Source: Amphiscolops sp. MND2022
Taxonomy: Eukaryota
NCBI GenBank assembly: GCA_964187785.1
Contig: OZ076409.1
Span: 71,860,001-71,924,000 of the forward strand
Direction of reading: 5' to 3'
DNA length: 64,000 bases
The notes beneath the pieces were generated by a model. It was not told the DNA's origin. It saw nothing but the letters and a program-made list of their open reading frames with translations, and searched no databases. This document shows, piece after piece, positions 607 through 64,000 of the stretch; position 1 is the stretch's first letter, and each line of letters begins with the position of its first letter. A program made the position numbers and the translations under genes.

Positions 607-1993
607 GTGGTTGGGGCGGTCCCCAGAACGCACAAGGAGGCGCGGGGAGGGTCCTGCGCCGACGTAGAATAATTTCATATAATACTAGTATCCTACATGG
701 GTGTTTTAGAAGCGATTTTGGAATCTAACCGTAGGATTTGGATAATTTTTTGCATGCGGCCACAACTCGAAATTCTAAGAACTTTTTCCTACTGTCATTT
801 TCCCCGCAAATTGTTTTTTGTTGACTTATGGCCGAAAAACCGGAAATAACGTCCTTTTTAGACGTTATATCCGAAGTGTTGTCATAACTTTTTTCCAGGG
901 CATGCTAGCGTTCTCCTTCACTTTTACACTTAGTTGCAGCATCTCGAAATACAACTGGTGGAAAATTTTGGTTGCATTCGGATCACCCCCCACCGAGATA
1001 GAAGGGTTCCCCCCTCCAGATTTACCCCCCAAATTTGCAAAAAAGCCAATTTTGAGCATGAAGCCGAGGATTTAGCGTACCCGCACCCTTCTGATGTTTT
1101 GTTGTACGTATTGGGGTCAATCTGACGACATGTGTGGTTTTCACCCCCAACCCCCCCTGGGACCGGAAATGACACTTTTTTGTGTTTTTTGGCAGAATTT
1201 AGCCTTTTTCATTATTAGACAGTCGTTTTAGGGACTCATAGCAGGATATCGAAATTGAAATACAACCTGATCACAACCCAGTGACAACATGTTGGCCACT
1301 TGGATGTACCATCATGACCGGAAGTGGGGTCAACCCCCCTTTTTGTGACCGCTTTTTGACCTTGTGCACCAAAATGCCAACAACTTGAGGCCTAATGACG
1401 CATTCAAATCTGTACAAAGATAGAGTGTTAGACAACTGAAGTCCCGGAAGATCTTTAGCATATACCGGAAGTTACCCCCATGACCGGAAGTTACCCAATG
1501 TGACCGGAAATGGTCCAAAAATTAATGTAAAGTTGAATTTTTCACTATTTCAAGACCACTTCATTGAACATTTTCAATCCCAAAACTAGCGTACTGGCTT
1601 GTTTTGCTGAATTTATGGAAATTGATGAGCTCTATCACCCCCTATAGCCTTTGAAGTTGACCTTGCGTCAACTTTGGAGGCTATCGATACTGAAAATGAA
1701 CAAGAAAGTACATTGTTGCTCTCGGTTTTTTCCCGTTGTTTTTCCTCAAACTTTCTTGAGACATATACATGGCCGTTAGTTGAAATCAATATTTAGCCCA
1801 TGTTATAGCTGGAGCAGTGAAGCGTTACACAGACTAGTGTGGTTTTGAAATTACATTACTTAAATTAACAACTGACCGTCTTAGACAACTCCACACATTC
1901 ATACCAACGCCCACCGTCTGTGGGCATGCCGAGGCATGCCCTTCGACGACGTATGACGAATCCACTCCAACGACACCCGCAGTCCTCAGCTAG
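607..1993 (+). mobile_element. Family A element (1387 bp)
   Basis: GTGG start, CTAG end; close copy at +1387; internal hairpin 1644-1684; palindrome 1922-1941. Confidence 0.75.
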
Positions 1994-3383
1994 GTGGTCG
2001 GGGCGGTCCCCAGAACGCACATGGAGGCGCGGGGAGGGTCCTGCGCCGACGTAGAATAATTTCATAAAATACTATTATCCTACATGGGTGTTTTTGAAGC
2101 GATTTTGGAACCTACCCGTCAGATTTCGATAATTTTTTGCATGCGGCCAAAACTCAAAATTCTAAGAACTTTTTCCTTCTGTCATTTTCCCCGCAAATTG
2201 TTTTTTGTTGACTTATGGCCGAAAAACCGGAAATAACGTTCTTTTTAGACGTTATATCCGAAGTGTCGTCATAACTTTTTTCCAGGGCATGCTAGCGTTC
2301 TTGTTCACTTTTACACTTAGTTGCAGCATCTCAAAATACAACTGGTGGAAAATTTTGGTTGCATTCGGATCACCCCCCACCGAGATAGAAGGGTTCCCCC
2401 CTCCAGTTTTACCCCCCAAATTTGCGAAAAAGCCAATTTCGAGCATGAAGCCGAGGATTTAGCGTACCCGCACCCTTCTGATGTTTTGTCGGACATGTTA
2501 GGGTCAATCTGGTGACATGTTTGGTTTTCACCCCCAACCCCCCCTGGGACCGGAAATGACACTTTTTTGTGTTTTTTGACAAAAATGAGCCTTTTTGATT
2601 AGTAGGGAGTCGTTTTTGGGCCTCCTAGCAGGATATCGAAGTTGAAATACAACTTGATCACAACCCAGTGACAACATGTTGGCCAGTTGCAGGTACCATC
2701 ATGACCGGAAGTGGGGTCAAACCCCCCTTTTTGTGACCGCTTTTTGACCTTGTGCACCAAAATGCCAACAACTTGAGGCCTAATGACGCATTCAAATCTG
2801 TACAAAGATAGAACGTTAGACAACGGAAGTCCCGCAAGCTCTTTAGCATATACCGGACGTCACCCCCCATGACCGGAAGTTGTCCAATATGACCGGAAAT
2901 GGTCCAAAAATTCATGTAAAATTAACTTTTTCACTTATTGAAGACCACTTCGTTGAACATTTTCAATCCCAAAACTAGCGTACTAGCTGGTGGCGTTGAA
3001 TTTATGGAAATTGAGGAGCTTTATCACCCCCGATAGCCTTCGAAGTTGACCTTGCGTCAACTTTGGAGGCTATCGATTCTGAAAATGAACAACAAAGTAC
3101 TTTGTTGCTCTCGTTTTTTTTCCGTTTTTTTCCTCAAATATTGTTGAGACATACACATGGCCGTTAGTTAAAATCAATATTTTAGCCCATGTTATAGCGT
3201 GAGTAGCGAAGCGTTACACAGGCTGGTGTGGTTTTGAACTGTAATTATTTTAAAATAAAAAAAGACCCTCTTAGTCAACTCCACACATTCATACCAACGC
3301 CCACCGTCTGTGGGCATGCCGAGGCATGCCCTTCGACGACGTATGACGAATCCATTCCAACGACACCCGCAGTCCTCAGCTAG
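1994..3383 (+). mobile_element. Family A element (1390 bp)
   Basis: Tandem diverged copy of 607-1993; palindrome 3312-3331. Confidence 0.75.
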
Positions 3384-5371
3384 GTGGGCGGGGGTAATTC
3401 CCCAACAAAAAAATCGGCCGGCGGGTCGGGTCCTGCCGGCCGTCCAAAATCAAAATCCTCCTAGTAGAAAACGGCATGTCAAACGAGCTATTTTTTTATT
3501 TAACCATACGAATTTCACCATTTTTTGCATGCGGCCCTGAAATGGCCATACGAGACGAAGTTCCTGCTGACGTTTTGCGATGTAAATGTTTTATAAAAAG
3601 TTATGGCCGATTTGTCATTCACCTAGAAGGGTAAAATGAGGAAAATTTTAACAAAGTCGCTGATAACTCAAAATGTGTTAATTTTTGGACTTTGACTGTG
3701 AAACAAGCTTGGAACCTTCATTTCGTGGCTGTGGCATTGCATTGAACACAAAAGATGTAAGGTTTTTACATTTTTTGAAAATTCGACATTTTTGAAATTT
3801 TTTTCACTACTATCAGTACCCCATATGTCAAAAACACCTCAGAAAAAAATTTTTATTTGCTTTAAATTGGAAACCTTGGTATCCATGGTTTCTGTCGGAA
3901 CCTACTCGCAGCCAAATACCCAACAGTTTGCATCCAATGTGAAAATAAAAATTTTTTCGGGGTCATAAGCGTTTCACAAGGATTTCTCAACTTAGTATTA
4001 GTTTACAAAATGGTCATTTTGAACATAATATTTTCATCGAGGCTTGTCGGCTATAGCCTTAATGTTCTAGAACGGTCCCACTGGCAACGTAGCAACCATT
4101 TATAGTAATATAAAAGGTTAAAAATTTTTTTTCACCCGGTCTTCAGTCATTTTTCAGACATTCGGAACATAACTTAGAAAATTTTCGACCCAAATACCCA
4201 TTTTTTGTCAGGTCGAAAATTAAAATTCAGCTATTAAAGCAAAATTATTTACTCTGACGTAACCAATGGGGCCCATGATACTCAAAAACACCATTGGCAC
4301 TGGTACCAATGGCTCCAATAACATATGAGTCGCGATAAGACGTTATTTTGAGCAATACGTCTCAGTTGAGGTAAAGATCTCGCAAGCCAGCGATCACTGT
4401 GAAATGTGATTTCATCAAAAATTTACTCATTTTTGTCAATAACTATGTGCACAGAGTGTGTAGGGTGAGTTCCAGCACTATAATGAGGTTTTTGAAGGCA
4501 TCGGGTTGCTCAAGGGGTGGTATGAGACATTTTTTTCCTATATACTACTGTGTTTTCCAAAACTTTTAGCCCATTATCAGGAAAAAATAATTTGACAAAA
4601 TACTTTCAACTACTTTATTCAAAGGTTACAATATAGATGAACACTGTGGTTGATCAGAAACTTTCATCTCTTTCGTTTTCCGAAATAATTTCCTTCGAAT
4701 GTGTTACATTTGTAGCCGGAAAAAAACCGAAACTAAAAAATACGCGATTTTGCTGAGATAGAACCGGGATAATTGTGTCTAAATACTCTTTAAATACTTC
4801 TAACGCGACCTTACGGACCCAAAAGGATTAAAAATGCCACTCACAATGCTGACATGTGCTCTTTCGACGATCCTGGCTGGACAAGTTTTGCAAATTTTTC
4901 AAGTACCTGTTAACTGAATTTTGTGATAGCCTTTTAAGTTGGCCTTGTGTCAACTTGGGAAGGCTATCACATCAAAAAACTTTCAACAAAAATACTTTTT
5001 GTTTATTGGATATTGCTGTCGATACCTTTTTTTGTGATTCTATACTACCGTTAGTATATTCCATCAGGTCACCAGACGATTGTATTCAGTATTTGATAAA
5101 AACTTATGAACTCGAAGTCTTTTTCATATGTTTTTTGTTCAAAAAAATTATCAAAAAAAATTATATTATAAACAATTGAGTCTTTAACTTTTTTATTTCC
5201 CAATTTTCCAGTGTTATTAGGCTCATCAACTTCCTACTGCCACATCCAGACATTAGTACAACGCCACAAAGTGTTGCGACGTCCACCGTCTGTGGGCATG
5301 CCGAGGCATGCCCTTCGACGACGTATGCCAAAAATAGCGCCCTCCGCGGTCACTACCGCGGTAGCAGCTAG
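3384..5371 (+). mobile_element. Family B element (1988 bp)
   Basis: GTGGGCGGGGGTAATTCCCC head; hairpin 4922-4971; palindrome 5294-5313; ends CCGCGGTcactACCGCGG-TAGCAG-CTAG. Confidence 0.75.
4922..4971. other. Conserved internal hairpin class I (representative copy)
   Basis: GATAGCCTT..AAGTTG..loop..CAACTT..AAGGCTATC in A, A', B, D and E elements. Confidence 0.85.
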
Positions 5372-6749
5372 GTGGCGGGGGTGCCTCATGCCCCTCAAAA
5401 AATCACGAGCGCGGGTAGGGTCCTGCGCGAGTTCAAGAAGTGAAACATCGATATTTCGAAGCAACACTTTTGGAAGCTATCTTTTTATTGAACCATACGA
5501 TTTGAACCATTTTTTGCATGTGGCTTTAGAATCAGGTTATAAGAACTTTTTCCTGCTGACAGTTTAACCGGAAATCATTTGGTGTTGACTTTTGGCCAAA
5601 AAACCGGTTATAACGTCGAAAATCAACGTTATATCCGAATTGTCGTCGTAACTTTTTTCCAGGGCGTCCTAGCGATTTTTGTTGCTCCTACATTGCGTTG
5701 CAGCATGTGAAAATACATCTGCTGTGAAATTTTGGTTGCAATCGGATCACCCCCCTCCGAGATTGAGGGGTACCCCCCTCCAATTTTACCCCCAAAATTT
5801 AGGAAAATGCCAATTTTGAGCATGAAGCTGTGGATTGAGCGTGTCCGCACCCTGCTGAAGGATTGTCGGGCGCATTAAGGTGAATCCGATGACATGTGTA
5901 GTTATCACCCCCAACCCCCCCTGGGACCGGAAATGACCCTTTTTTGTGTATTTTGACAGGAAGTTGTGGTTTTCAGTCGTAAGACGTTGTTTTATGTTCG
6001 CTTTACAGGGTATCAAAGTTGAAACACAGCATGAGAACAACTTAGTGACCACATTTTGGCCAGTCGGGGGTAACGTAATTACCGGAAATAGGGTCGAAAC
6101 CCCCCAAAATTGATGTTTTTTGACCATTATGACGTTTATTGATCGCGTATAGGTCCGATAGGTCTCATTAACTATTGTCAAGATGAACAGCTGATCAATT
6201 AACGATGTCTTAACGACGCTTTCAGAAACCGGAAGTTAACCCTCGACCGGAAGTGGTCCATTTTGACCGGAAATGGTGCGAAAAATAGATCAAAAACGTC
6301 TTTTTTGTTTAATTTCTGTATACTTCGTCAGATATTTTTGAAATTTTGAAGGTTGTGGTTGAAAGTAGGATTAAAAGACTGAATCGCTGCAGAATGATGA
6401 TCACCTTTGTCACCCCCCGATAGCCTTCCAAGTTGACTTTGGGTCAAGCTTGAAGGCTATCTGTTATGAAAACAAAAAACAAAGCAGGACCCCCTGTCCC
6501 CGTGGTTGTTAAATTCTGCTTAGATCAGTTCAATGCAGAGAGTACTTTGGTTAAGGTAAACAAATAGCGTTACTTTTACGTTTCTTATAGTTGTTCACCC
6601 CCACCCGCCAAAATTTCATGCACCTCCCCCCTCAGTACAACGCCACATAGCGTTTCGACGCCCACGGTCTGTGGGCATGCCGAGGCATGCCCTTCGACGA
6701 CATATGCCAAATGAGCCTTTCCCGCACTCTGGAGTGCGGTAGCAGCTAG
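5372..6749 (+). mobile_element. Family A' element, divergent relative of A (1378 bp)
   Basis: Colinear with A (CGGATCACCCCC, TTTTGAGCATGAAGC, CCCCCCTGGGACCGGAAATGAC); different head and 3' hairpin CCGCACTC-tg-GAGTGCGG. Confidence 0.72.
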
Positions 6750-8926
6750 GTGGAGGTTATTTTATAATAATTAAAGTGTTTTTTTCCGGAGTTTGTGGCT
6801 TTGGAAAAAACAAAAGGCGAGAAATTGGGCACTCCGGGCTGAACCGTATACACTCAAAATTCGCCCAATATTTATACGATCTCGAAACTCAGCCGTACGA
6901 TTTGGCTGAAAATTTGCATGCGTCTAAAAAATCAGATTCTAAGAACTATTTCCTGCTGACATTTTTTTGAAATTTTTGTGTACGTTTCCCCCCCGCCCCC
7001 TAAAGGGGTCAATTTTCCCCAATTTTGCACTTATGAGTCAAATTCTCAAAACTGGTGGATCTGAGCGTATTCCCGGCGGGGACAACTTTTAACGAGCGCT
7101 CCTCAGTAGACCTTTTTGACTTTTTACTTTGGTGGTACGTTCACCCCCCGAGGAGCAAATGGCGTTTTTGTGACTTCCGGTCGAGGCTTTTTTCACCCAA
7201 AAAATAGAATTAAGCCAATTTTGAGCAGGAAGGAGTGGATTTAAAGTGCCTGTACCCTGCTAAAAATTTGTTGGGCTTGTAGCGATATATCTCATACCAA
7301 GTCTGGTTTTCACCCCCAAACCCCCCTTGGGACCAAAATTCACCCAAACTTTTTTTACCTCTGTTTGTAGTTTTTTGCAAAATGTCGTCATTTCCATGGG
7401 TAAGGAGTTGAATTAGGGGCTCCTAATAGGGTACCAATGTTCAAGTACACTTGCAGTGCAACTGAGTGACCCTTTTGGGGCCACTCCTGTGTTCGGCAAG
7501 GACCGGAAGTGAGGTAAACCCCCCTTTTTTGACGTTTGTTGACCTTGAGACTCGCGCTTAGATGACGTTTATGTCGCGCAAATCCTACAAACCAGTATTA
7601 GGATGACATGCTAGCCAACTAGAGAGCACTAAGGGAAACTATACTATACCGGAAGTAACCCCCCGTGACCGGAAGTTGTCATTTTTGACCGGAAATGGTC
7701 CAAAACATAGCGTAAAGCAGTTTTCATTGCTTTTAAAGTCAACTCATTACTTTTTTCAGTCTGCGCGAGCTTGTCTTCAGATTCGTTTTTGTTGTCCGTG
7801 CACACTACAACAAATATACATCTGTAGAAATTGTGCTATAATATCGTCGGAGAGAGAAATAACGGGAATTTTTTTCAAAAATGTTTGTCTATATCTATCA
7901 TTTTTACCCAACGTTATTCAACAGTAGAACCACAGGGGTTAGTATCTGCCAAAATATATGCCTAACAAAACCACTCGTCCCATTGGTTGCAGTTTGAGCG
8001 TTCTAGCTTTGCTTGGTCACAAGTTGAGGGACTTCAAAAAGTTTCAAATTTTTTTGGAAAATTTTTTTTAAACGTCACGTCTCCCAAAGTTAAGAATTTT
8101 CCACACAACTAGGATTGCAAGAGAATGCACATGGTAAGACCTATAAATGGAGAGAAAAATTCCGTTCAGAACGTCTCTTTATCGTTACGTGACGTTAAAA
8201 GATGTTGCTTTGAATGTGAATTTGATAATGCGTCGAGAAGTAAAAGAGTGTGAATGGATCCTATGTCTCGACAAATACTCATCGCAATACATACGATGAA
8301 CCCCAATTACCCTCACTTTCAGTTGGCTAGTACATCAGCGTCTTCCAAGGACCGTTTACCTATTTGAAAATTGTCAAAATCATTATTAATATCAGTTAGC
8401 AAGAAATATTTGAGTACATTGTCATCTCTCCCCATCGGGTGAGATGAGAATGTTCTTGCTAAAAGTCAAGTACTACGGCCCATTTTTGTTTTATTGCGAC
8501 GTTTTCTGTGCCTTAGCACAAGGATACTTTTATGTCATCTCACTTTTGTAATACAATCTGACTTGTTGTTATAAATTTCTCGTCATTACTTTACCTAAAC
8601 TTACTACCATGCATCTTTAACGTCAAAGCCAAATTCATTTAGACGCCCACCATTCCGTAGGTATGCCGAGGTATGCCTTTCGAAGACGTATGGCAAAACA
8701 CAAACGGGCAAATGAAAAGGGCTGAAATTCAGAAACAGTCACAAACAATTTTGACTATTTGACCGATGGTAGGTTTTTATATGGAACTTACACATCACTG
8801 ACATTTCAAAACATTCCAGCTGACGCCCACTTACAAACATCAACGCCCACGGTCCGTGGGCATGCCGAGGCATGCCCTTCGACGACGTATGGCAAATACT
8901 TTTTACGACGTCCCAACTTTCCCTAG
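6750..8926 (+). mobile_element. Family C element (2177 bp)
   Basis: A-related middle (GCCAATTTTGAGCA, TTTCACCCCCAA, ACCGGAAGT triplet); decayed palindrome ~8660-8677 plus intact one at 8858-8877; CTAG end. Confidence 0.7.
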
Positions 8927-11900
8927 GTGGTTGGGGCGTTATTCCCCACGAAGTTCGCGGCCGCGGGAGACGGGACCCGCGGACCGCCCATCCAATGCAA
9001 AAATATACACTCTAAACAGCACCATTATAAACACGATCTCGAAAATGAACCGTAGGATTGTCTTGAAATTTTGCATACGGATAGAAGAGAAAATTCTAAG
9101 AACTTTTTCCTGCTGGCACTTTTCCGAAAAAAATGTCCTTCATGGGTTTTTTGGGTTTTTTTGGTTTTTTTCTCATCTTTCTCATCTTTGATTAATCAAT
9201 CACCGAATCAAAGGCCATTTTCAGCATGAATGAATGCCCGTAGCAGCAAAGTGCACATTTACAAAAATCATCAACGGTCAACGGTCTTTCGAACGGTCCA
9301 AAAAATTTTCCCCCGGGGGGCATCCAAAGTGCCGAAAAGTGCCAAAATATTTTTTTGGTCTGAATCATTTTGATGAAATTGTTGATTTGAGCAGCAGGAA
9401 CGGTCCGCACGGTCTCGGACCATAAGGTCAAAAATTGTCAGTGAGTTATGGTGACGACCAAAATGACATTGGTTGAGCTGTAGGAGGCCTCTGAAAAAAT
9501 TTGAATTTTTTGAGTCTACAATCCGAGCTGAACTGTTACGTATTATGAACTTTTCAGTACTATGTTGCCAATGACCGAGTACAGATAGATGCATGGGTCA
9601 GCCTTATTGAAATGAACATTGGGCACTGGGCTACCGATTGAGTGCAAAAATTATAGCCTAGTTGCTGTAGTCGAAGAAAAAAATTCTCAGAAGTGTTACT
9701 TTCAATTTGTCATGTTGACTCGGAGTTACAAAAAGGTGATTTTCTCGCCAACAACGGTCCGAACGGTCTTCGACCATGAGATCAAAAATTGTCAGTGTGC
9801 TATGGTGACGCCCAAAAACCCACCGGAACAAGCGTAGGATGCTTCTGAAAAAATTTCGAATTTTTACGTCGGCCCAAGAGTTATTGTGTTACATCGTAAC
9901 AACTTTTCGTGTATGCATATCTCCTGACAGAGTACAGATAGCATCATGGGTCACCTTTATGAAAGTGAACGTGGGCCACTGGTGAACTGCATGGTTATAA
10001 AAAACTTAGACTAAGTGCTGCACGGCGTGAATAATATGCCAAGATGTGTTATTTACGATATTTTAGCACGACTCGGACTGACAAAAAGCCTATTTCTGCC
10101 CCAGCAACGGTCCAAACGGTCATCAAGTGTAAGGTCAAAAAATGTCAGTGTGACATGATGGCGCCTAAAAACCCACCAGAACATTGGTAGGAAGCTTCTG
10201 GAAAAAATTCGAATTTTTACGTGGGCCCGAGAGTTATGATGTTGCATCGTAGCAACATTTCGTGTATGCATATCTCCTGACAGAGTACAGATAGCATCAT
10301 GGGTCACCTTTTTGAAAAAAAACGTGGGCCACTGGTCTATCGATTGGTTGTAAAAAGTTTTCAATCACTGCTGCACGGCGTGAATAATATGCCAATATGG
10401 GGTATTTAGCATTTTTTTGCACGACTCGGACCTACAAAAGTCCCATTTCTGCTCCACCAACGGTCCGTACGGTCTTCAACCATAAGGTCAAAAAAGTCAG
10501 TGTGCTATGGTGACGCCCAAAAACCCACCAGTACACTTGTAGAGTGCTTCCGAAAAATTTTGGAATTTTTAGGTGAGTCCGAGAGTTATAGAGAGTTATG
10601 TTGTCACATCGTAACTACATTTCGGGAATGTATATCTCCTGACACAGTACAGATACCAACATGGGTCATATTTTGGAAAGTGAACGTGGGCCACTGGCCT
10701 ACCGAATGGTGATAAAACGTTTTCACCAGTTGCTACAGGGAGTGATAAAAGTGCTTACATGGGTTACATAGCATTTTTTCAGGCGGCTCGGACTTACAAA
10801 AAGCTCATTTGCTCGCGAACAACGGTGTATACGGTCTCCACTCAGAGGGTCGAAAATTTTTCGTGGGCTATGGTGACGCTCAAAAACCCATCAGTTTACT
10901 TGTGGGATGATTCTGTAAAAATTTAGTGTTTTCGTGCAGTCTATGTTACATATTACATTGGGAACCGTGTTTTTTTCTCACCAAAATCATGTTTCTGAGT
11001 GCCCAAAAACAATTTTTAAAGCCCAGTAGCCACCTAAAATGTTCTTTTGCATAACATGGGATGTGAATAACGTGAAGAAAGTGCTCACTGTGGATTTGGA
11101 GTTATCTCGAAAAAATCAGCTGCCATTAGACGTTACATTACAGAAAATCGTACCTTACATATCGATTCATGGGTTGAGTCAAAAACAGCTAAAGTTCTTT
11201 TTCAGTCAATCAAGACACTTTTTTGTTCACAACCAAGTGTACAGCTGACGTCGAACCTATTTTGACCTTTCACAATGGTTATAATGCGATTTTGAGGGAC
11301 AAAAGCCTCGTTGACCAACAAAGTTCCAAGATGAAATTGCTTTCCAAATCATTTTTTGAAGTATAGGAACGCCATTTTTTGGCGACATCCATCAAATATC
11401 CACTTCTTTTGGCCCAGTGGCTTGTGAAAAATACAACTGGGCATTGACAAGGCACATGGAACTTAATTCGAGTAGTCATGTGCCACAACATTTGCTAATC
11501 GATAGCAAATTTTGTTGAAAATTGATACAACATCACATTTTTGGTGGTCTCAAAATGACAAAATGGAGCTTCAGCAGCAACTATTGGCTTTTAGTGGAAC
11601 TCACTGGCACTGTAGTTTAGGAAAAATAGGTTTACAGTAGTTTCATGCTACTTTTTTAGAATCTGAGGTACATAAAAATATCATACTGAATAGACATATG
11701 ACTTAAACATTGGAATTTTTCCGGATGTGTCACCACTTTTTTGGTATCAGCGGTCCTACCAACACTGTTTTTGGTCTACAACTAAAACCGAGGATCCACC
11801 AAGGTGTATATCAGACTTGTAAAATCAATGCAAGGACTTTCGACATGTCAAAAGTACTGATAAGAAGAGAAACTTCTCAAAAATTTATGTTATGTGTCAT

Positions 11901-13658
11901 ATTCCATTCCACGTTTTTTAATCGGTGCTTGTCGGTTATAGTATTAACGCTCAACAACAAGCTTACTGACAAGAAACAACTTGTTAACAGTTATTAAAAG
12001 TATTTATAATACCACCATGCTCGGTCTTGGCACATTTTTCATCCCATTCGGTCTTAACGTGTAAATTTTACTTCCCAAAAACCCTATTTTTGTCAGGTCG
12101 AAATTCGAATTTTTGTGTTTTGATCAATATTATTGTGTCTGACGTAACCTGTGGCCTCCAAAATACTCAAAAACAATAGTATGACTGCTATCAAATGCTT
12201 CAGTGATATGTGGGGCACGTTAACACGTTTTGGTAGGAACAATTCCACTTTGAAGTGAAAATTTGGAAGACACATTGTGTCAATAAAAACTGAATAGGTG
12301 AAAAACGTACCTAACTCTCGTCAATTAGTATTGATGTAGTAACTGTGTTGCGAATTAGAGGTCTATAGAGTGGTGTATGGGAAAACTGTGGCGCTTAAAG
12401 CGTTGTTCATAACAAAGTTCTTCCAGTAACTACTATTGTGTTTTCAAAAGTTTCACTATATTTCACATATCCACAGAATGTGATTGATGCCACCTAGTAA
12501 TGGAAAACCACTGTCGAATCTTCTTTAGTGGACTCAACAGTCCTGAAAATCACAGACATACATCATGTTTCATAATTATACGATCGAGGCTACACAATAA
12601 TTTATTTCCGCTAGTTGCTGATAACTGAATTTCCTGATAGCCTTCCAAGTTGGCCTTGTGTCAACCTGGGAAGGCTATCAGTACAAAACACAAAGAACAC
12701 AGCTTGTTGTTGCCTTTAATTTGCTGTTGTTTTCGTTAAGATTCTATGGTACCGTTTCTTTATAACATGTGGTTAACATAAGACAATTTCTCTCGGTATG
12801 GAACGACATCCATTGATAAGAAAGATTACAGTTTTTTAGTTGAAAAAGACCTTGAAACTAGTGCGCAATTCATGCAATTCATCCAAAAAGCTCAATCATT
12901 TCAATACTTTGCGTCACATTGAGCGTCACGAACCACAATACTCCCTTTAACTGACAGTACAAAGACACATCATCATTTGACCGTCCACAGAGCGAAGGCG
13001 TGGCGAGGCACGCCTTTCGAAGTCCTTTGGCAAAAAAGTACTAACGTCCGTTCGTGACGCATACGAAAAACTCTTTTCATTTCAACAATCGTCATAAAGC
13101 ATATTCGTTATATCGTCTTTTGGTTACATTTGTGCAGTGATACCTTTATCAGTGAAATATTAAGTTATACCTAGGTAACAGCAGTTACTTCGTGATTACC
13201 AAAGTGATATCAAAATGTTGTTACATAAATATTTCTGACAGCGGAATTCCGAAGTGTCATTAGGTACTTTTGCAGTGCTCGTTAGGAAAGCGAGTACTTT
13301 TGCTTGGACCAAACATGCTTGTATCAGATTGGTCATGTGAAGGCAGGTAACGGAATCAAAACAATGTTCCTCATCAGCTTTTTGGTAGGGTCAGAAACAC
13401 AATGTTTCCTTTTTACCGTCCCCCAATTGTTTGTTAGCTTCTGTTCATAGAGAATTGTTTCTGCGCAGACCAAAATATAGCAAGTTATCCAATACGCCTG
13501 ATATCGGTTTTGCCCCACAGAGAACTATCACTTAACATTTTTGTATGTTGACATCTTTTTACCCCGTAGTTCAACAACTCATGCACCTTCATTTCTTCTT
13601 CAACAACTAACTCGCCACCTCCGTGTCGTCTCGTGGTTTGTTTAGCCTCCAGCGCTAG
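8927..13658 (+). mobile_element. Family D element (4732 bp)
   Basis: Second copy at 50475-55210 has the same boundaries; internal ~354-bp repeats; variant palindrome 12995-13016. Confidence 0.75.
9399..10930 (+). repeat. Internal tandem repeat, ~354-bp unit, ~4.3 diverged copies
   Basis: AACGGTCCGNACGGTC...TCAAAAA-type anchor at 9399, 9753, 10106, 10459, 10821; end approximate. Confidence 0.85.
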
Positions 13659-15647
13659 GTGGGCGGGGGTAATTCCCCAACAAAAATTACGGCCGGCGGG
13701 TTGGGTCCTGCCGGACGTTCAAATAGCGCGAAGCATCTAGTAGAAAACAAGGAGTCCTGAAACAGCGATTTTAAAATTGAACCGTTAGAATTTGGTTTTA
13801 GATTGCATGCGGCCCTAAAATCCCCATACGAATGGAAGTTCCTGCTGGCGTTAAGCGATTGAAATAATATATAAAAAGTTATGGCCCATTTTTGGGTCAC
13901 CGAGAAGGTCAAAATGAAGAAAATTTTAACTAAGTTGCTGATAACTCAAAATGTGTTAATTTTTGGACTTTGACTGTGAAACAAGCTTGGAACCTTCATT
14001 TCGTGGCTGTGGCATTGCACTGAACACAAAAGATGTAAAGTTTTTACATTTTTTGAAAATTCGACATTTTTGATTTTTTTTTCACTACTATCAGTACACT
14101 ATATGTCAAAAACACCTCTGAAAAAATTTTTTATTTGCTTAAAATTGGAAACCTTGGTATCCATGGTTTCTGTCGGAACCTACTAGCTGCCAAACACCCA
14201 ACAGTTTGCATCCAATGTGAAATTAAAATTTTTTTCGAGGTCTTAGGTGTTTCACAAGGATTTCTCAACTTAGTTTCAATTTACAAATTGGTCATATTGA
14301 ACACATTATTTTCATCGAAGCTTGTCAGATACCGCCCTAATGCTCACTAATGGGCCTACTGGCAACGTTGGAACCGTTTAGAGTAATAGAAAGTAATAAA
14401 AAAATTTTTTCACCTGTTCTCCAGTCATTTTTCAGACATTCGGAACTTATCTTAGAAAAATTTCGTCTCAAAAACCCATTTTTCGTCAAGTCGATAATTG
14501 AAATTCACCTTTTTATGCAGAATTACTAACTCTGACGTAACCAGTGGTGGGGCCCATGATACTCAAAAACACGATTGGGACCGGTACCAATGGCTCCAAT
14601 ATCATATGAGCCGCGATAAGACGTTATTTTGAGCAATACGTCTCAATAGAGGTAAACATCTCGCAAGTCAGGGATCACTGTGAAGTGTGATTTCATCAAA
14701 ATTTTACTCATTTTCGTCAATCACTATGTGCACAGAGTGCGTTGGGTGAATTCCAGCACTATAATGAGGTTTTTGAAGGCATCGGGTTGCTCAAGGGGTG
14801 GTATGAGACATTTTTGTCCCATATACTACTGTATTTTCCAAAATTTTTAGCCCAATATCTGGAAATACAAACTTGACAAAATACTTTCAACTACTTTATT
14901 CAAAGGTTACATTATAGATGAACACTGTGGTTGATCAGAAACTTTCATCTCTTTCGTTTTCCGAAATATTTCCCTTCGCATGTGTTATATTTGTAGCAGA
15001 AAAAAAATCGAAACTGAAAAATACGCTATTTTGATAATATAGAATCGCATTGATTGTGCCTAAAAACTCTTTAAACACTTCTAACGCAACCTTACGGACC
15101 CAAAATGGATGAAAATGCTATTCACAATGGTGACATGTGCTCTTTCTACGATCCTGACTGAACAAGTTTTGCATATTGTTCAAGTACCTGTCAATTGAAT
15201 TTTGTGATAGCCTTTCAAGTTGGCCTTGCGTCAACTTTGGAAGGCTATCACATCAAAAAATTTTCATCAAAAATCTTTTTTGTTTATTGGATTTTACAGT
15301 CGATACCTTTTTTCGTGATTCTATACTACCGTTAGTATATTCCATGAGGTCATCTTACGATTGCATTCAGTCTTTGATAAAAACCTATGAACTCAAAGTC
15401 ACATTTATATATTTTTTGCCCAACAAAATCATCAAAAATATCTAAAATATGTAAAATAGAGTCTTTACCTTTTTTAAGTTTCAAGTTTCTGCCGTTATTA
15501 AGCCAATCAACGTCCTAGAGCCATATCCTGTCATACTGTACAACGCCACATAGTGTTGCGACGTTCACGGTCTGTGGGCATGCCGAGGCATGCCCTTCGA
15601 CGACGTATGCCGAATACCGCGGGCCTACGCCCGCGCTCCCCGGCTAG
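13659..15647 (+). mobile_element. Family B element (1989 bp)
   Basis: Colinear with 3384-5371; palindrome 15576-15595; ends GCGGGC-ctac-GCCCGC-GCTCCCCGG-CTAG. Confidence 0.75.
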
Positions 15648-17639
15648 GTGGGCGGGGGTAATTCCCCAACAAAAAAATCGGCCGGCGGGTCGGGTCCTGC
15701 CGGCCGTCCAAAATCAAAATCCTCCTAGTAGAAAACGGCATGTCAAACGAGCTATTTTTTTATTTAACCATACGAATTTCACCATTTTTTGCATGCGGCC
15801 CTGAAATGGCCATACGAGACGAAGTTCCTGCTGACGTTTTGCGATGTAAATGTTTTATAAAAAGTTATGGCCGATTTGTCATTCACCTAGAAGGGTAAAA
15901 TGAGGAAAATTTTAACAAAGTCGCTGATAACTCAAAATGTGTTAATTTTTGGACTTTGACTGTGAAACAAGCTTGGAACCTTAATTTCGTGGCTGTGGCA
16001 TTGCATTGAACACAAAAGATGTAAGGTTTTTACATTTTTTGAAAATTCGACATTTTTGAAAATTTTTTCACTACTATCAGTACCCCATATGTCAAAAACA
16101 CCACAAAAAAAATTTTTTATTTGCTTTAAATTGAAAACCTTGGTAGCCATGGTTTCTGTCGGAACATACTCGCTGCCAAACACCCAACAGTTTGCATCCA
16201 GTGTGAATTTAAAAATTTTTTCGAGGTCTTAGGTGTTTCACAAGGATTTCTCAACTTAGTATCAAATTACAAATTGGTCATTTTAAACACATTATTTTCA
16301 TCGAAGCGTGTCAGATACCGCCCTAATGCTCACGAACGGGCCTACTGGCAACGTTGGAACAATTTATCGTAATAGAAAGTTTTAAAAAAAATTTTTCGCC
16401 CGGTCTTCAGTCATTTTTCACACATTCGGAACTTAACTTAGAAAAATTTCAACCGAAAAACCCATTTTTTGTCAGGTCGAAAATTCAAAGTCAGCTTTTT
16501 AAGCAAAATTATCAACTCTGACGTAACCAGTGGGGCCCATGATACTCAAAACAACGATTGGGGTTGGTACCAATGGCTCCAATAACATATGAGTCGCGAT
16601 AAGACGTTATTTTGAGCAATATGTCTCAATTGAGTTAAAGATCTCGCCAACCAGTGATCACTGTGAAATGTAAATTCAATAAAAATTTACTCATTTTCGT
16701 CAATCACCATGTGCACAGAGTGCGTAGGGTGAGTTCCAGCACTATAATGAGGTTTTTGAAGGCATCGGGTTGCTCAAGGGGTGGTATGAGACATTTTTTT
16801 CCTATATACTACTGTATTTTCCAAAAGTTTTAGCCCATTATCTGGAAAAACTAACTTGACAAAATACTTTCAACAACTTTTTTCAAAGGTTACAATGTAG
16901 ATGAACCCAGTGGTTGATCAAAAATTTTCATCTCTTTCGGTTTCCGAAATAATTCCCTTCGAATGTGTTACATTTGTAGCAGGAAAAAAACCGAAACTAA
17001 AAAATACGCGATTTTGCTGAGATAGAATCGCAATGGTTGCCCCTAAAATCTCTTTAAATACTTCTAACGCGACCTTATGGACCCAAAATGATTGAAAATG
17101 CCATTCACAATGCTGACATGTGCTCTTTCGACGATCCTGGCTAGACAAGTTTTGCATATTTTTCAAGTACCTGTTAACTGAATTTTGTGATAGCCTTTTA
17201 AGTTGGCCTTGTGTCAACTTGGGAAGGCTATCACATCAAAAAACTTTCATCAAAAATACTTTTTGTTTATACAATAATGTAGTCGATAGTTATTTTCGTG
17301 ATTTTACACTACCGTTAGTACCTTCCGCCAGGTCAGCTGACGATTGCATGCTGTCTTTGATAAAAACGTATGAACACCAAGAAAATTTTGTTGTATTTTT
17401 GTTGAAGAAAAGTATTAATAAATAATAAAAATATAATTCTAACCTTAAACAACTATAAATTTGCTTAACCGTTATTAGTCCTACCACCTATCATCAGCCT
17501 ATGCCATGGCCCGGTGATTAGTAGTACAACGCCACATAAAGTAGCGACGCCCACAGTCTGTGGGCATGCCGAGGCATGCCCTTCGACGACGTATGGCAAT
17601 TTTAGCGTAGCCCGCGGTCACTACCGCGGTAGCAGCTAG
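15648..17639 (+). mobile_element. Family B element (1992 bp)
   Basis: Head nearly identical to 3384; palindrome 17562-17581. Confidence 0.75.
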
Positions 17640-19620
17640 GTGGGCGGGGGTAATTCCCCAACAAAAAATTCGGCCGGCGGGTTGGGTCCTGCCGGACGTC
17701 AAATAGTGTGAAACATCCAGTAGGAAACGGCGACATTTATCAGCGATTTTAAAATTTAACCGTTAGAATTCGGACTTGGAGTGCATGCGGCCCCAAAATG
17801 CCCATACGAATCGAAGTTCCTGCTGACGTTAAGCGGTAAAAACATTTTATAAAAAGTTATGGCCCATTTTACGTTCACTTAGAGAGGTAAAATGAGGAAA
17901 ATTTAAACAAAGTTGCTGATAACTCAAAATACATTAATTTTTGGACTTTGACTGTGAAACAAGCTTGGAACCTTCATTTCGTGGCTGTGGCATTGCACTG
18001 AACACAAAAGATGTAAAGTTTTCACATTTTTTGAAAATTCGACGTTTTTGAATTTTTTTCACTACTATCAGTACACTATATGTCAAAAACACCTCTGAAA
18101 AAATTTTTTGTTTGCTTAAATTTAGAAACCTCGGTATCCATGGTTTCTGTCGGAACCTACTCGCAGCCAAACACTCAACAGTTTCCATCCAATGTGAAAA
18201 TAAAATTTTTTTCGGGGTCATAAGCGTTTCACAAGGATTTCTCAACTTAGTATTAATTTACAAAATGGTCATTTTGAACACAATATTTTCATCGAGGCTT
18301 GTCGGCTATAGCCTTAATGTTCTAGAACGGTCCCACTGGCAACGTAGGAACCATTTATAGTAATAGAAAGTTTTAAAAAAATATTTTCACCCGGTCTTCA
18401 GTCATTTTTCAGTCATTCGGAACTTAACTTAGAAAAATTTCGACCAAAATACCCATTTTTTGTCAGGTCGAAAAATCAAATTAAGATTTTTAAGCAAAAT
18501 TATTAACTCTGACGTAACCCATGGGGCCCATGATACTCAATACAACGATTGACACTGGTATCAATGGCTCCAATAACATATGAGTTGCGATAAGACGTTA
18601 TTTTGAGCAATACGTCTCAATTGAGGTAAAGATCTCGCAAGCCAGCGATCACTGTGAAATGTGATTTCATCAAAAATTTACTCATTTTTGTCAATCACTA
18701 TGTGCACAGAATGCGTAGGGTGCGTTTCAGCACTATAATGAGGTATTTGAAAGCATCGAGTTGCTCAAGGGGTGGTATGAGACATTTTTGTCCCATATAC
18801 TTCTGTATTTTCCAAAATTTTTAGCCCAATATCTGGAAATACAAACATGACAAATAACTTTCAACTACTTTATTCAAAGGTTACAATATAGATGAACACT
18901 GTGGTTGATCAGAAACTTTCATCTCTTTCGTTTTCCGAAATATTTCCCTTCGCATGTGTTACATTTGTAGCAGAAAAAAAATCGATACTGAAAAATACGC
19001 TATTTTGCTAATATAGAATCGCAATGATTGTGCCTAAAAACTCTTTAAACACTTCTAGCGCGACCTTACGCACCCAAAATGATCGAAAATGCTATTCACA
19101 ATGGTGACATGTGCTCTTTCAACGATCCTGACTGAACAATTTTCGCAAATTATTCAAGTACCTGTTAACTGAATCTCGTGATAGCCTTTTAAGTTGGCCT
19201 TGCGTCAACTTGGGAAGGCTATCACATCAAAAAATTTCCAACAAAAAACTTTTTGTTTATTGGAAATGACAGTCGATATATAATTTCATGTGTCTATACT
19301 ACCGTTAGTACCTTCCATTAAGTCACCTGACGATTGCATTCAGTCTTTGATAAATACCTATGAACTCGAAGTCATATTTATAAATTTTGTGCTAAAAATA
19401 ACCATCAAAAGTATCCAAATTATTTAAAATTGAGTCTTTACCGTTTTTGTTTTTCTTTTTCTACTGTTATTAGGCCCATCAACTTCCTACAGCCACGCTC
19501 TCTGTCATTAGTACAACGCCACATAGTGTTGCGACGTGCACGGTCTGTGGGCATGCCGAGGCATGCCCTTCGACGACGTATGCCGAATACCGCGGGCCTA
19601 CGCCCGCGCTCCCCGGCTAG
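17640..19620 (+). mobile_element. Family B element (1981 bp)
   Basis: B body; palindrome 19549-19568; CTAG end. Confidence 0.75.
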
Positions 19621-21615
19621 GTGCGGGGGGGAAACCCCAACAAAATTTTTGGAGGATTCGGGTAGGGTCCTGAATCCGAGTTCAGTGCTGCCAGCTTTCG
19701 TTAAGAAAATTTGGATAGGATTCGGGATCTCGTGATCTAACCATAGGATTTTAAAGTTGGAGCGGCCCCCACCAGATTTTCCGAAAATTAGCGCCCCCCA
19801 CCGGGTTCCATACCCCGGAAAATTTTTTTCTGGCCACACGGGCGACCGTTAGGGGGTCATTTTAGGGGTAAAATTCATATTGGGCCACATAACTTTTTTT
19901 CTGTTGATTTAAAACTTTGGGACCCTGCTAAAAGTTTCTTGACCGTGTTGCAGGGGCCCCGGAGGTCCAAACCAAATTTTTCTATCTTGAAGCTATCTCC
20001 AAGTACCCCCCCGCCCAAAACGTTATTTTTCCGGAAACGCAGGTTTTTGACCCGGAAGGAGTCGTCGGAGCGCGGGGTCGTTAGGTGATGTATTGGGGAC
20101 GGCCTTGAGACGAAGTGGGGGACATGTAGTTTGTCAACCTCAGTTTACCCCTCGGACAGGAAATGACCGTTATATGAGCGGGAAAATTGCCCCCCTCCAC
20201 GTTTTACCGCTATTTCCGGTGTGAAGGAGTGGGAGTAGCGCGTCGGGTGCCATATATCAAAAGTAGGTTTAGACAAGGACCTATCGGAAACATGTAGTTT
20301 GGGACCCCCTGGACCAACCCGTTAGCGGGAAATGGCGCTTCCGCCTCCTTTTTTTACGGTTAAAAACGGAAAATGGGCATTGAGGGGTAAATATCTCGTG
20401 AACGCGTGGAGCTACGGTGTCCTTCACTACTACAAGGTTTCATACCCATGATATGGTGCCTTCAGGGGGGCAAACAGATTTCCGCTATCTATCACCGTTA
20501 CGGACTTGGCCCCCCAGCCTAACCGTTAAGTGACCGGAAATGTCATATTTTGAACCCAAAGGGTGGGTCCCAGCCGGGGAACGTTAGGTAACTTATTGTA
20601 GTACTCATTGAGACGAGTTGGGGGACATAGTTTCAGTCACCCCCCGTTACCCCTTGGGACCGGAAATGACCGTTATGTGGGTAAAGTTGCAATTTTTGTA
20701 CTTTTTGAAGGGCAATTAGGTGCGGAAGGAGTGGTAATAGGTGCTTGGACACTATATGATGGAAGGGAGGATGTGAGGCGAGCGTTCGGAAATAACCGTT
20801 ATGTTGACCCCAAAGTCCCCCTGGTACCGTAAACGACCGGAAATGGTCAAATTTTGTGTCTATTGGGTACAAATGTTTGGTATTCTGTAAATATAAGTAT
20901 CTATTAGGTGTTTCGACGGTTTGCAGTTGTGAACATAGTCATGAAACCTTGTGGGGGTAACGGTATATAGCACCGGAAATCCGAACCGTTGGAGACAGGA
21001 TAGGTTTTTTGCTTTCAAAATGCCTATAAGCGTATTTTTGTGGGTTGAATTGTCATAATATCGACTATTTTGGATGTTTTTCTGACATTAAATGTATTTC
21101 CGATAGTTTCAGGGACCTCCATTGCTTCAATCAACTTAACCGTTACCTTATGATAGCCTTTCAAGTTGCCCTCGTGTCAACTTGGAAGGGCTATCCTTCA
21201 AAAATCGTGAATCAAGTGTGTTTTTGAGTGAGTTTTTATTACTTTAGTATCAATTAGATCTTAATAATCAAATTGTTAACGACAAAAACTATGTCGTGAT
21301 GATACCGTTAGTAGCAGAATAGTTAACAACTAGTTGATAAAGTTGATTTTTTGCCTTTTAAATGTTTCCTAGAAGTCAGGAAAACAATTTACCTCATAAA
21401 TGGTACTGATTGAACCCAAGTAACAGCTGAAAAAAAGTTGAACATTATTTTTTCGTTTCATTATGGAAGCAAAAACCTCACTTATTAGTTTCATTAACGT
21501 CAACGCCACATACTTTACATCAACGCCCACGGTCTGTGGGCATGCCGAGGCATGCCCTTCGACGACGTATACCAAATTCCTCCAACACAACACCCTCGAG
21601 CGCGGTAGCAGCTAG
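19621..21615 (+). mobile_element. Family E element (1995 bp), single copy, GC-richer interior
   Basis: Starts GTGC; interior unique in the window; keeps head hairpins, GATAGCC hairpin 21152-21195, palindrome 21538-21557 and CTAG end. Confidence 0.7.
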
Positions 21616-23850
21616 GTGGGCGGGGGTAATTCCCCAACTAAAAAATCGGCCGGCGGGTAGGGTCCTGCCGGCCGTCCAAAATCAAAAATATACTAGTAGA
21701 AAACGGCCGGTCAAACGAGCTATTTTTTTATTTAACCGTTAGAATTTGGGTTTAGATTGCATGCGGCCATGAAATGGCCATACGAATCGAAGTTCCTGCT
21801 GACGTTTTGCGATTGAAACACTTTATAAAAAGTTATGGCCAATTTGTCAGTCACCTAGAAGGGCAAAATGAGGAAAATTTTAACAAAGTCGCTGATAACT
21901 CAAAATGTGTTATTTTTTGGACTTTGACTGTGAAACAAGCTTGGAACCTTCATTTCGTGGCTGTGGCATTGCACTGAACGCAAAAGATGTAAAGTTTTTA
22001 CATTTTTTGAAAATTTGACATTTTTGAAATTTTTTTCACTACTATCAGTACCATATATGTCAAAAACACCTCAGAAAAAAAAATTTATTTGCTTTAACTT
22101 GGAAACCTTGGTATCCATGGTTTCTGTCGGAACCTACTCGCAACCAAACAACCAACAGTTTGCATCCAATGTGAAAATAAAAAATTTTTCTGGGTCATAA
22201 GCGTTTCACAAGGATTTCTCAACTTAGTATTAATTTACAAAATGGTCATTTTGAACACAATATTTTCATCGAGGCTTGTCGGCTATAGCCTTAATGTTCT
22301 AGAACGGTCCCACTGGCAACGTAGGAACCATTTATAGTAATAGAAAGTTTAAAAAATATATTTTCACCCTGTCTTCAGTCATTTTTCAGTCATTCGGAAC
22401 TTAACTTAGAAAAATTTCGAACAAAATACCCATTTTTTGACAGATCGAAAATTCAAATTCAACTTTTTAAGCAAAATTTTTAACTCTGACGTAACCAGTG
22501 GGGCTCATGATACTCAAAAACACGATTGGGACTGGTACCAATGGCTCCAATATCATATGAGCCGCGATAAGACGTTATTTTGAGCAATACGTCTCAATTG
22601 AGGAAAACATCTCGCAAGCCTGGGATCACAGTTAAAAGTGATTTCGTCAAAAATTTACTCTTTTTCGTCAATCACTATGTACACAGAGTGCGTAGGGTGA
22701 GTTTCAGCACTATAATGCGGTTTTTGAAGGAATCGGTCTGCTCAAGGGGTGGTATGAGACATTTTTTTTGCATGTAGTACTATATTTCTCAAAACTTTTA
22801 GCCCATTATCTCGAAAAGCTCACTTCGCAAATTACTTTCAGTTACTCTATTCGAAGCTTAGAATATATATGAACACTGTGGTTGATCAGAAACTCTTGAC
22901 TATTTTGTTTTTGGAAAAAAACTGCCTTGCATGTGTTACATTAGTGGCAGGAAAAATACCAGTAGCTCCAAAAATCACAATTTTGGACGGACAGACCTGC
23001 AATGATGCAAAGCAAAAACGTTTCAACAACTTCTGGCGCCACTTTTTTTACCCAAGAGGTTCGAAATTACTATTAACAATGCTGACATCCGCTATAAATA
23101 AGATCGAGGTCAATTTACTAACACTTAGGTTATACATTTATATCTGAGAAACCATTCTTTGTCAGGTCGCAATTTTAAATTTAGTTTGGGAAGCAATACT
23201 TTTCACTCTGAAGCAAACCGTTGGGCCCAAATTACTCAAAAACTACAAAAAGACTGTCACCATATGCCCTAATAGCATATGAGATTCGACCGTTCGTTTT
23301 TAACACAAAAACTCTCATCCGAAGTAAACATGTTGAAAGGCTTGAATCACCGTGAGAAATGATTTCATCTAAAAATATTCCTTTTTCGTCAATCTTTATC
23401 TACACAGAACACGTTGTGTCATTTTCAGCCGTGAAATGAGCTTCTACCGTAATATGGGTTGCTCAAGGTGTTGTATAAGACAAAAACTTCCTCTTTTCTA
23501 CTATCTTCTTCAAATATTTCAACCCTTTGTCACAAGAAGTTAATATTCAAAATCTCTTTGAAATGTTTCTTTAGGTTGGGGTGAAGTGTTAGAACAATAA
23601 TTATGATCGAAGAATGATAGTATTGGTGTTTGGACCATGTCCGGATGAACAAATTGCAAAATCATGAAAAATTTCTTACCATTTTTGGTCATTTTGTCAG
23701 TACTAAAAATGTTAGCTGAAAAAGAATTTTTTTGATGGCACCATTGGATTCCTCTCAAAAAGTTAGCTATATGAACTGTGTAATAACCCCGTATCTTTTC
23801 AATTTAAATAATTTTAAAAATCCAACTTTTTTGACTAAAATCCTAAAAAT

Positions 23851-25190: not shown

Positions 25191-25410
25191 ACCATAATAT
25201 GTTCCATATAAGAAGTGAATCATTCCACATATATACCCGGTCTAATATTTCCAAATTAGCGATAACATTTATACATGATGGTTTTCGAAAGTGAGCTTCA
25301 TAAGAGGTTGAGATGTAATAATACGTAAATGGACCCTAAGTTTCATTGAAATCTCAATGGAATACGTCCAATCAACTTCAATCCTAACTATTATATAACA
25401 AAAAACACTT

Positions 25411-25452
25411 GAGTACATTCCATCTCCCCATCGGGGGAGATGAGAATGTACT
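25411..25452. other. Conserved internal hairpin class II (representative copy)
   Basis: AGTACATTC-CATCTCCCC-atcg-GGGGAGATG-a-GAATGTACT in C and F elements (292, ~8412, 25411, 34186, 42932, 47698, 60993). Confidence 0.85.
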
Positions 25453-63943: not shown

Positions 63944-64000
63944 GTGGCGGGGGGCTGTCCCCAATAGAATATAGTGAGGTAGGGTAGGGTTCCCTACCGA
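63944..64000 (+). mobile_element. Start of another element with a new head variant
   Basis: GTGGCGGGGGG-ctgt-CCCC then GGTAGGG-tagggtt-CCCTACC hairpin; same architecture as other heads. Confidence 0.65.

Follow-up and report, generated by a model that had tools for sequence, protein, structure and literature searches.

In the Helitron Helraiser the left end is required and the right end can be bypassed (3′ bypass; PMC4778049), and in elements of the IS91 family the tetranucleotide of the terminator resembles the target, termination often fails and transposition can be one-ended (PMC13181058). Here we analyse a stretch of 64,000 nucleotides (nt) of contig OZ076409.1 (positions 71,860,001 to 71,924,000 of the forward strand; assembly GCA_964187785.1, Amphiscolops sp. 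MND2022), referred to below as the window, and compare it with these and related systems. The 64-kb window is a chain of gene-less mobile elements that belong to several related families and are joined end to start at one short junction. All 24 complete units lie on the + strand and none is nested inside another; moreover, self-comparison of the window, at the stringency used, revealed no minus-strand similarity among the units. The system of non-autonomous elements in the window is real and unusually well ordered, and the junction that its units share is precise; its layout is as follows (the bar in CTAG|GTG marks the junction).

607..63943, + strand: array of 24 complete head-to-tail non-coding units of 1069-4770 base pairs (bp), cut at CTAG|GTG, with no open reading frame longer than 160 amino acids (aa)
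1-606 and 63944-64000, + strand: partial units at the window edges; the array extends past both ends of the window
606, 1993, 3383, 5371, 6749, 8926, 13658, 15647, 17639, 19620, 21615, 26378 and 28383, + strand: junctions found as a sequence motif, given as the position of the G of CTAG
30390, 35160, 37146, 39135, 43898, 48329, 49398, 50474, 55210, 57198, 61960 and 63943, + strand: the remaining junctions, given in the same way
5367..5375, + strand: junction core GCTAG|GTGG between units U03 (3384-5371) and U04 (5372-6749)

The window contains 25 CTAG|GTG junctions; CTAG sites as such number 96. The sequence GCTAGGTG occurs 24 times, always on the + strand, against 0.6 occurrences expected, and the 25th junction, at 8926, reads CCTAGGTG. 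The junctions were initially chosen by their CTAG motif, and a left-end profile applied afterwards revealed no further left ends: its 24 matches all lie at junctions and none lies inside another unit (the left end of U05 was missed by the profile). Ten types of right end are joined to ten types of left end in 18 different combinations. Among the 300 possible pairs of junctions, 20 share at least 100 nt on the left and lose identity 3-5 nt after CTAG, 18 share at least 100 nt on the right and lose identity 4-7 nt before the junction; stretches of at least 150 nt shared on both sides are limited to 2 pairs. Switches of neighbour map to about −4/−5 and +3/+4 of the junction. Since identity breaks close to both sides of the junction, the point of exchange lies within a core of 7-9 nt, which is too short for ordinary homologous recombination.

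In 38 informative pairs the switch could be narrowed down to a core of 7-9 nt, which bears on the idea that the array is a complex satellite. In such a satellite divergent monomers, perhaps long-dead derivatives of transposons and without present mobility, would exchange parts through unequal crossing-over and through illegitimate recombination in conserved boxes. Switching of monomers at conserved boxes of 17-20 bp has been described for Meloidogyne satellites (PMC3694981), and parts of the window look similar: units of the B family are patchworks of 79-99% identity in which the nearest relative changes along the length of the unit, the two junction pairs mentioned above share long blocks on both sides, and unrelated bodies have tails in common (those of U04 and U11 are 94.8% identical over 115 nt). 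The B-unit mosaics show that recombination reshapes the array too. Nevertheless, not only is switching confined to the short core, but no left end is truncated or lies inside a unit, the arms of hairpins covary from family to family (see below), and the architecture recurs, at 73% identity, in an independent metagenome contig; we regard a satellite of this kind as a lesser rival and as improbable.

To which element the sequence beside the junction belongs can be read from linkage. The right-hand tail is linked to the body of the upstream unit (identity difference 0.27, reached in 0 of 5000 permutations) and not to the downstream unit (identity difference 0.008, p=0.37), which rules out a boundary inside the palindrome box described below. 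The element boundary lies at or within a few bases of CTAG|GTG; a boundary away from CTAG, which the preliminary description of this DNA had named as evidence against its own interpretation, was not seen, given this tail linkage and the positions of the neighbour switches. The array fits a nick at CTAG|GTG, a nick at CTAGG|TG or a duplicated 7-bp core alike. (Note that the junction core, for example at 5366-5377, seems to resemble part of the CTCF-binding consensus, maybe by coincidence.)

One right end in the window is followed by something other than a unit start.

28352..28383, + strand: 32-nt extra right-end piece with an ATG start, its own hairpin and a CTAG end, placed after a complete A-type end at 28351

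At the A-type end CTAG is kept but is followed by A in place of G; the stretch around it shows 0-1 mismatches per 100 nt to the other A-type ends. The preliminary description had CTAG always followed by GTG, which is true of the 25 junctions but not of this end, which continues with ATG; likewise, the GCGGGC/GCCCGC stem that it placed in eight units does occur eight times, seven of them at junctions and one in this internal end. The 32-nt piece resembles the C-type tail, in which ATG comes after CCAA, and we read it as the product either of read-through or of insertion at a near-cognate site. If it was inserted at CCAA|ATG (a single case, in which CCAA is deduced from related tails), then the element ends at CTAG and its target resembles its own junction.

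The same A-type end bears on two other explanations of the shared core. According to the first, the units are site-specific double-strand transposons moved by a DDE transposase (Dada-like) or a tyrosine recombinase (Crypton-like). CTAGGTG would then be either a duplicated target or the core of a crossover, and the families would have been stacked, with one core between each pair, as the same genomic target was used again and again. Every unit is indeed bracketed by the same 7-9 nt core, and short direct repeats are familiar in both groups: tandem Dada copies, which have no terminal inverted repeats (TIRs), are separated by one 6-bp duplication (PMC3706591), and Cryptons have terminal direct repeats of 4-6 bp, although none are reported for animal Cryptons (PMC3212892). 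However, an end that keeps CTAG and not the following G does not fit a duplicated core, hairpins that keep their structure and not their sequence are left unexplained, and the sequence left of the core is so variable that no inverted binding arms are evident by inspection. Moreover, the window holds no small-RNA gene that could be the target of a Dada-like element, the edges of the array lying outside it. Double-strand transposons, the main rival of the reading that we favour, are a possible but rather unlikely source of the array.

According to the second explanation, the units are ordinary elements of the Helitron lineage with the nick one base further right (3′ CTAGG, 5′ TG), or a family already in Repbase or Dfam, and their novelty is only apparent; mechanistically this overlaps with the rolling-circle reading that we favour below. 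The array does not fix the nick within the core, and FoHeli3-5 start with TGCCT. Much as in the right end here, mite HINEs carry a palindromic subterminal inverted repeat (subTIR), located 38-60 bp before the 3′ terminus, and after it a stem-loop (PMC4067079); internal tandem repeats are typical of HINEs, and abutting Helitrons are known in maize and bats. The A in place of G after 28351, in a stretch otherwise so close to the other A-type ends, argues against a shifted nick, and the units have neither a 5′ subTIR partner nor T-rich ends; we consider ordinary Helitrons quite improbable.

The right ends combine a conserved box with variable tails.

5294..5313, + strand: subterminal palindrome of U03, with 9-bp arms around GA, in a conserved box of ~55 nt
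5344..5361, + strand: terminal hairpin of U03, with a 7-bp stem and a 4-nt loop, ending 10 nt before the 3′ end of the unit
8659..8678, + strand: diverged internal palindrome copy in U05, with two G.T pairs, ~200 nt upstream of the current palindrome
12995..13016, + strand: covaried internal palindrome copy in U06, ~650 nt before an end without a palindrome
about 54545-54566, + strand: covaried internal palindrome copy in U21, the counterpart of the U06 copy

The box continues into one of ten tails ending in CTAG. The palindrome is present at 21 of the 25 right ends, centred 58-71 nt before the unit end (97 nt in U12), and in 16 right ends a stem-loop follows it. The hairpin that the preliminary description took for a Helitron-like 3′ terminator (U03 type or A type) is found at these 16 of the 25 right ends but is absent from nine (U00, U01, U02, U05, U06, U10, U19, U20 and U21), one of which, U00, could form a small alternative hairpin of 4 bp. 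The pattern CCGC-N(3-12)-GCGGTAGCNGCTAG has nine matches in the window and none in 100 shuffles; all nine end where the preliminary description had placed its hairpin-CTAG ends (5371, 6749, 17639, 26378, 28383, 30390, 35160, 43898 and 61960), and their four different stems are fully paired, as it had said. Its claim that the stems covary holds in that stem positions 5-6 change on both sides (GC/AT/CG), but only four haplotypes exist, the outer stem CCGC/GCGG is invariant and 2 of the 24 arm permutations pair equally well. Taken alone, the terminal hairpin is weak evidence. The palindrome, which covaries in U06/U21 and in the metagenome contig, and the two hairpins of the left end are better conserved. 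The right ends of U05, U06/U21, U12 and U19/U20 have been extended or replaced.

The right ends of U01, U09 and the metagenome contig (L019:862-883) are similar in their last 18 nt (CCCGC...TCC...G before the final four bases), with or without a hairpin; primary sequence may be more important here than the terminal hairpin. The 20-nt palindrome alone also occurs in unrelated bacterial genomes (L001-L008), in some of them as a likely terminator or repeat stem, with no other feature in common.

At the left end the order is GTG(G), a short hairpin of a G-run and a C-run, another hairpin whose loop is conserved, and then a core of ~115 nt.

5378..5394, + strand: left-end hairpin 1 of U04 (G-run, variable loop, C-run)
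5409..5428, + strand: left-end hairpin 2 of U04, with a conserved loop, a G.T pair at stem position 3 and family-specific covarying outer arms
5468..5582, + strand: conserved ~115-nt core, ~95-215 nt from the left end, present once in each complete unit (24 of 24) and also in the metagenome contig
6750..6815, + strand: left end of U05, AT-rich and unrelated to the others after GTGG, with two hairpins predicted at the same positions

In 8 haplotypes, Watson-Crick pairing of the outer arms of hairpin 2 is seen at 32 of 40 positions, whereas permutation gives 17 (p=9e-5); the count was anchored on the loop, with the anchor picked by the analyst and the longest stem taken. An automatic consensus fold of 11 left ends gave no compensatory pairs (0 of 6 pairs), which we put down to misalignment by indels. 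The top strand folds better than the bottom strand in 11 of 12 left ends, and three of the 12 (U04, U19 and U20) are no more stable than shuffled sequences. That stems keep their pairing while their sequence changes suggests, as far as comparison of the units can tell, a single-stranded substrate. The ~115-nt core is reminiscent of the conserved block of DINE-1/HINE-type elements in invertebrates.

The pairing does not extend from one end of a unit to the other. When the first 30 nt were compared with the last 130 nt, no asymmetric terminal inverted repeat (ATIR) or subterminal inverted repeat was found, the best match in each of the 24 units being 7-9 nt with one mismatch, and among 11 representatives inverted matches averaged 7.5 nt between a unit's own ends and 7.9 nt with the ends of other families. 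No TIR linking the two ends of a unit was found above this control level, and we reject the idea that the units are TIR elements. Direct matches between unit ends, the core aside, are 6-10 nt with one mismatch and differ by family.

Since G.T pairs on the top strand would suit RNA, we also entertained the idea that the units are non-autonomous, site-specific retroelements whose hairpins act in RNA, which would fit the single orientation and the fixed junction. The window contains no 5′-truncated units and no poly(A) or simple-repeat tails, however, and Rfam gave no family at gathering score in the window (one chance-level match only, in 1-22000); we consider retroelements very improbable.

Searches outside the window returned one homologue, a metagenome contig of 1172 bp (L019), in which the same box, a hairpin-less tail, the junction, both left hairpins and the core are present at 73% identity over 310 nt. 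To judge by this contig, head-to-tail joining recurs in an independent assembly. Its junction reads GCGAG|GTG, not CTRR, so that the CTAG end claimed in the preliminary description, found at all 25 junctions of the window, gives way to CGAG|GTG at the homologous junction; CTRR may not be required, although a single point mutation may also be responsible. The metagenome scans gave 11 matches, and the ten others were dropped as GC-rich (58-67%; the window has 38% GC) and without palindrome or junction. Repeated scans of a viral contig collection gave 0 matches, matches in prokaryote genomes (8 and 1) lacked the surrounding motifs and were treated as chance, with further scans giving 0, and no longer homologous contig was found in the viral, prokaryote or metagenome collections.

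From the observed array, its precise point of shuffling, the conserved structures and the extended ends we infer an enzyme, a strand, a nick position and an order of events. A single-strand transposase of the HUH rolling-circle type, most probably a divergent Helitron-like enzyme, would act in trans on the units. It would recognise both left-end hairpins, in the top strand, and introduce a nick at the junction, most probably at CTAG|GTG. The strand would then be peeled off from left to right until a right-end signal, consisting of the palindrome box, an optional hairpin and then (G)CNAG, stops the process; a missed stop would let it run on to the next similar site and so create a new right end. 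The preferred target would resemble the element's own end-to-start junction. If target and terminator read alike, the ends of resident units are good targets, which would explain a mixed array of one orientation: a new copy, whatever its family, would be placed precisely at the border of two resident units, and mosaic units would arise later by gene conversion or homologous recombination.

In favour of this reading we count the precise shuffling, the structure kept despite sequence change, the better folding of the top strand, the fixed left and variable right ends, which match both 3′ bypass in Helraiser and one-ended transposition in IS91, the lack of a TIR or ATIR, and the head-to-tail junction of the metagenome contig; the structure-conserved hairpins and apparent extensions of the 3′ end make a rolling-circle mechanism the best supported one. 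Several observations weigh against it. The units start with G unless the nick lies at CTAGG|TG, and Helitron ends described in the literature available to us start with T (TC, T, TCAG or TGCCT). The tandem Dada copies mentioned above, split by a single target duplication (PMC3706591), present a junction of the same kind. The metagenome contig is the only outside homologue found. Neither a gene nor a fragment of a transposase was detected in the window, where stop-to-stop frames reach 160 aa at most; Pfam gave nothing above the curated cut-off in the 12 of 36 frames scanned; and no host flank or empty site is present. The strand asymmetry of the left ends stems largely from one shared G.T pair, and the 12 ends are not independent. 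Finally, perfect stems can arise by template-switch mutation without selection.

On balance, there is in our judgement an even chance that the units are non-autonomous elements of the rolling-circle kind, in which the left origin is fixed and the right terminator loose, and which, like IS91, insert at targets similar to their own end. The preliminary description had proposed a variant rolling-circle group: the structure-conserved hairpins and apparent 3′ end extensions agree with this, but the terminal hairpin is optional, L019 does not keep CTRR and no Rep/helicase gene or empty site was found in the window, and the different nick specificity that it suggested is something that we, too, infer. 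A bolder version, which we think unlikely, is that the units represent a separate eukaryotic, probably animal, group of single-strand transposons outside HLE1 and HLE2, which would follow the logic of IS91 (a nick after CNAG; origin, terminator and target alike), recognise hairpin structure and not sequence, target its own junctions and use cassette-like arrays of many families as a safe harbour.

The bodies of the units carry further traces of how the array was built.

23846..25183, 32622-33902, 41367-42717, 46133-47468 and 59428-60778, + strand: 336-bp tandem repeat of long B units (tandem-repeat search)
9717-10924 and 51266-52474, + strand: 353-bp tandem repeat in U06 and U21 (tandem-repeat search)
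6419..6461, + strand: long internal hairpin of U04, present too in the six other units inspected (U01, U03, U06, U07, U10 and U13)
48330..50474, + strand: U19 and U20 (1.07 kb each), 81-84% like U06 over about nt 110-590, with an unrelated right part, a GCTAG end and no palindrome or hairpin

Families among the units include U01/U02, U04, U05, U06/U21, U10, U19/U20 and a large B group, with common blocks at roughly 60-85% identity. One or the other internal tandem repeat is carried by 7 of the 24 units; none of the 11 tandem-repeat rows reported for the window is a microsatellite. A second, different internal hairpin is found in U00, U11, U14, U17, U18, U23 and L019, and no tRNA was found in the window.

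Near-identical long units lie 35-42 kb apart: U11 and U23 (21616-26378 and 57199-61960), which are 99% identical over their first 1470 nt, and U06 and U21 (8927-13658 and 50475-55210). Two junction pairs are identical on both sides. To go by the similarity of these distant units, the pattern points to block duplication or conversion within the array. Unit U18 (43899-48329) is a chimera, its first 3900 nt being 96% like the long unit U11 and followed by the 520-nt right part of short B units, which is 99% like U16 and U22. Diverged modules of ~400 bp (60-68% identity) recur within and between families (positions ~815-1226 and ~1537-1947 of B-group units; ~2990-3523 of U06), which suggests that unit bodies may have grown by old internal duplications.

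Programs that find Helitrons look for TC...CTRR ends, or for TIRs with TT sites, and tools so tuned would miss elements with these ends or call them satellites. If our reading is correct, the window reveals a rolling-circle element, in a eukaryote, that has changed its cut-site specificity and strictly targets itself; it would also reveal how transposons can give rise to large, mixed tandem arrays. In the 10 left and 10 right ends nature has supplied a series from which variable and constant structures can already be told apart, and once the enzyme is found the requirements of origin and terminator could be tested on this series. A sequence-specific single-strand transposase would also be of interest for genome engineering.

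Among known systems, HLE1 Helitrons resemble the units in having no TIRs and, ~10 nt before the 3′ CTAG, a hairpin (here in 16 of the 25 ends), and in that 3′ bypass creates new ends and different elements form head-to-tail junctions in maize and Myotis (PMC11417382, PMC4778049, PMC2267711). The units differ from HLE1 in several respects. The TC start is absent from all 25 junctions, where GTG follows CTAG throughout (a start at T would give TG); L019 reads CGAG; the array has two structured left-end hairpins and a subterminal palindrome; and at least 24 units of several families stand in one array, compared with occasional pairs. Of the other HLE1 features, the hairpin 10-12 nt before the 3′ end is absent from nine ends and from L019, and insertion at A|T without duplication has its counterpart in unit-to-unit junctions that are G|G. 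Non-autonomous Helentron/HLE2 elements (HINE, DINE-1, Cg_HINE) and FoHeli share with the units internal tandem repeats, an internal core that is conserved, hairpins at the two ends, and a palindrome tens of bases before the 3′ end with a stem-loop after it (PMC4067079, PMC7492417, PMC5148889). The units lack T-rich ends and a 5′ partner of the subTIR or ATIR kind, and neither a TT site at the junctions nor a microsatellite among the tandem repeats reported was seen. We reject membership of HLE2, as the units have no ATIR of 11-18 nt and the junction profile is GC-rich, not T-rich.

As for the IS91 family, IS91 and IS801 have two subterminal palindromes at the origin end and a palindrome beside the terminator, their terminal tetranucleotide is similar to the target tetranucleotide, and they show one-ended transposition; moreover, the complementary strand of the IS91 terIS sequence 5′-CTCG reads CGAG, the tetranucleotide of the L019 junction, a single case and maybe a coincidence (PMC13181058). 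These elements are prokaryotic and carry tnpA, whereas the units are eukaryotic-looking and non-coding and form kilobase mixed arrays. Dada is target-specific, lacks TIRs and forms tandem copies split by one short core (PMC3706591); its target duplication of 6-7 bp compares with the 7-bp core that separates all units here, where the small-RNA target of Dada is not seen in the window. The shared core could also be read as the terminal direct repeats of 4-6 bp of Cryptons, with no inverted arms evident by inspection. Replitrons, with an HUH enzyme (a Y1 Rep transposase), short terminal direct repeats and oriented insertion, are similar, but are described from plants, algae and protists, in a text in which the word 'metazoa' does not occur (PMC10288648). 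A search of the literature by titles and the openings of abstracts (supplements, where terminal sequences often stand, being outside its scope) gave no description of these termini or of so long a mixed array. Third-clade Helitrons of Paramecium have non-canonical ends (CCAA), keep to one orientation, carry satellite cargo and are proposed to be target-specific, and the stems of their alternative right ends are compensatory; they differ in being flanked by telomeric repeats, whereas the units here abut without spacer (PMC13085455). Since non-canonical, target-specific Helitrons (Paramecium, Fusarium) and abutting Helitrons (maize, bats) exist, the kind of element seen here is known already.

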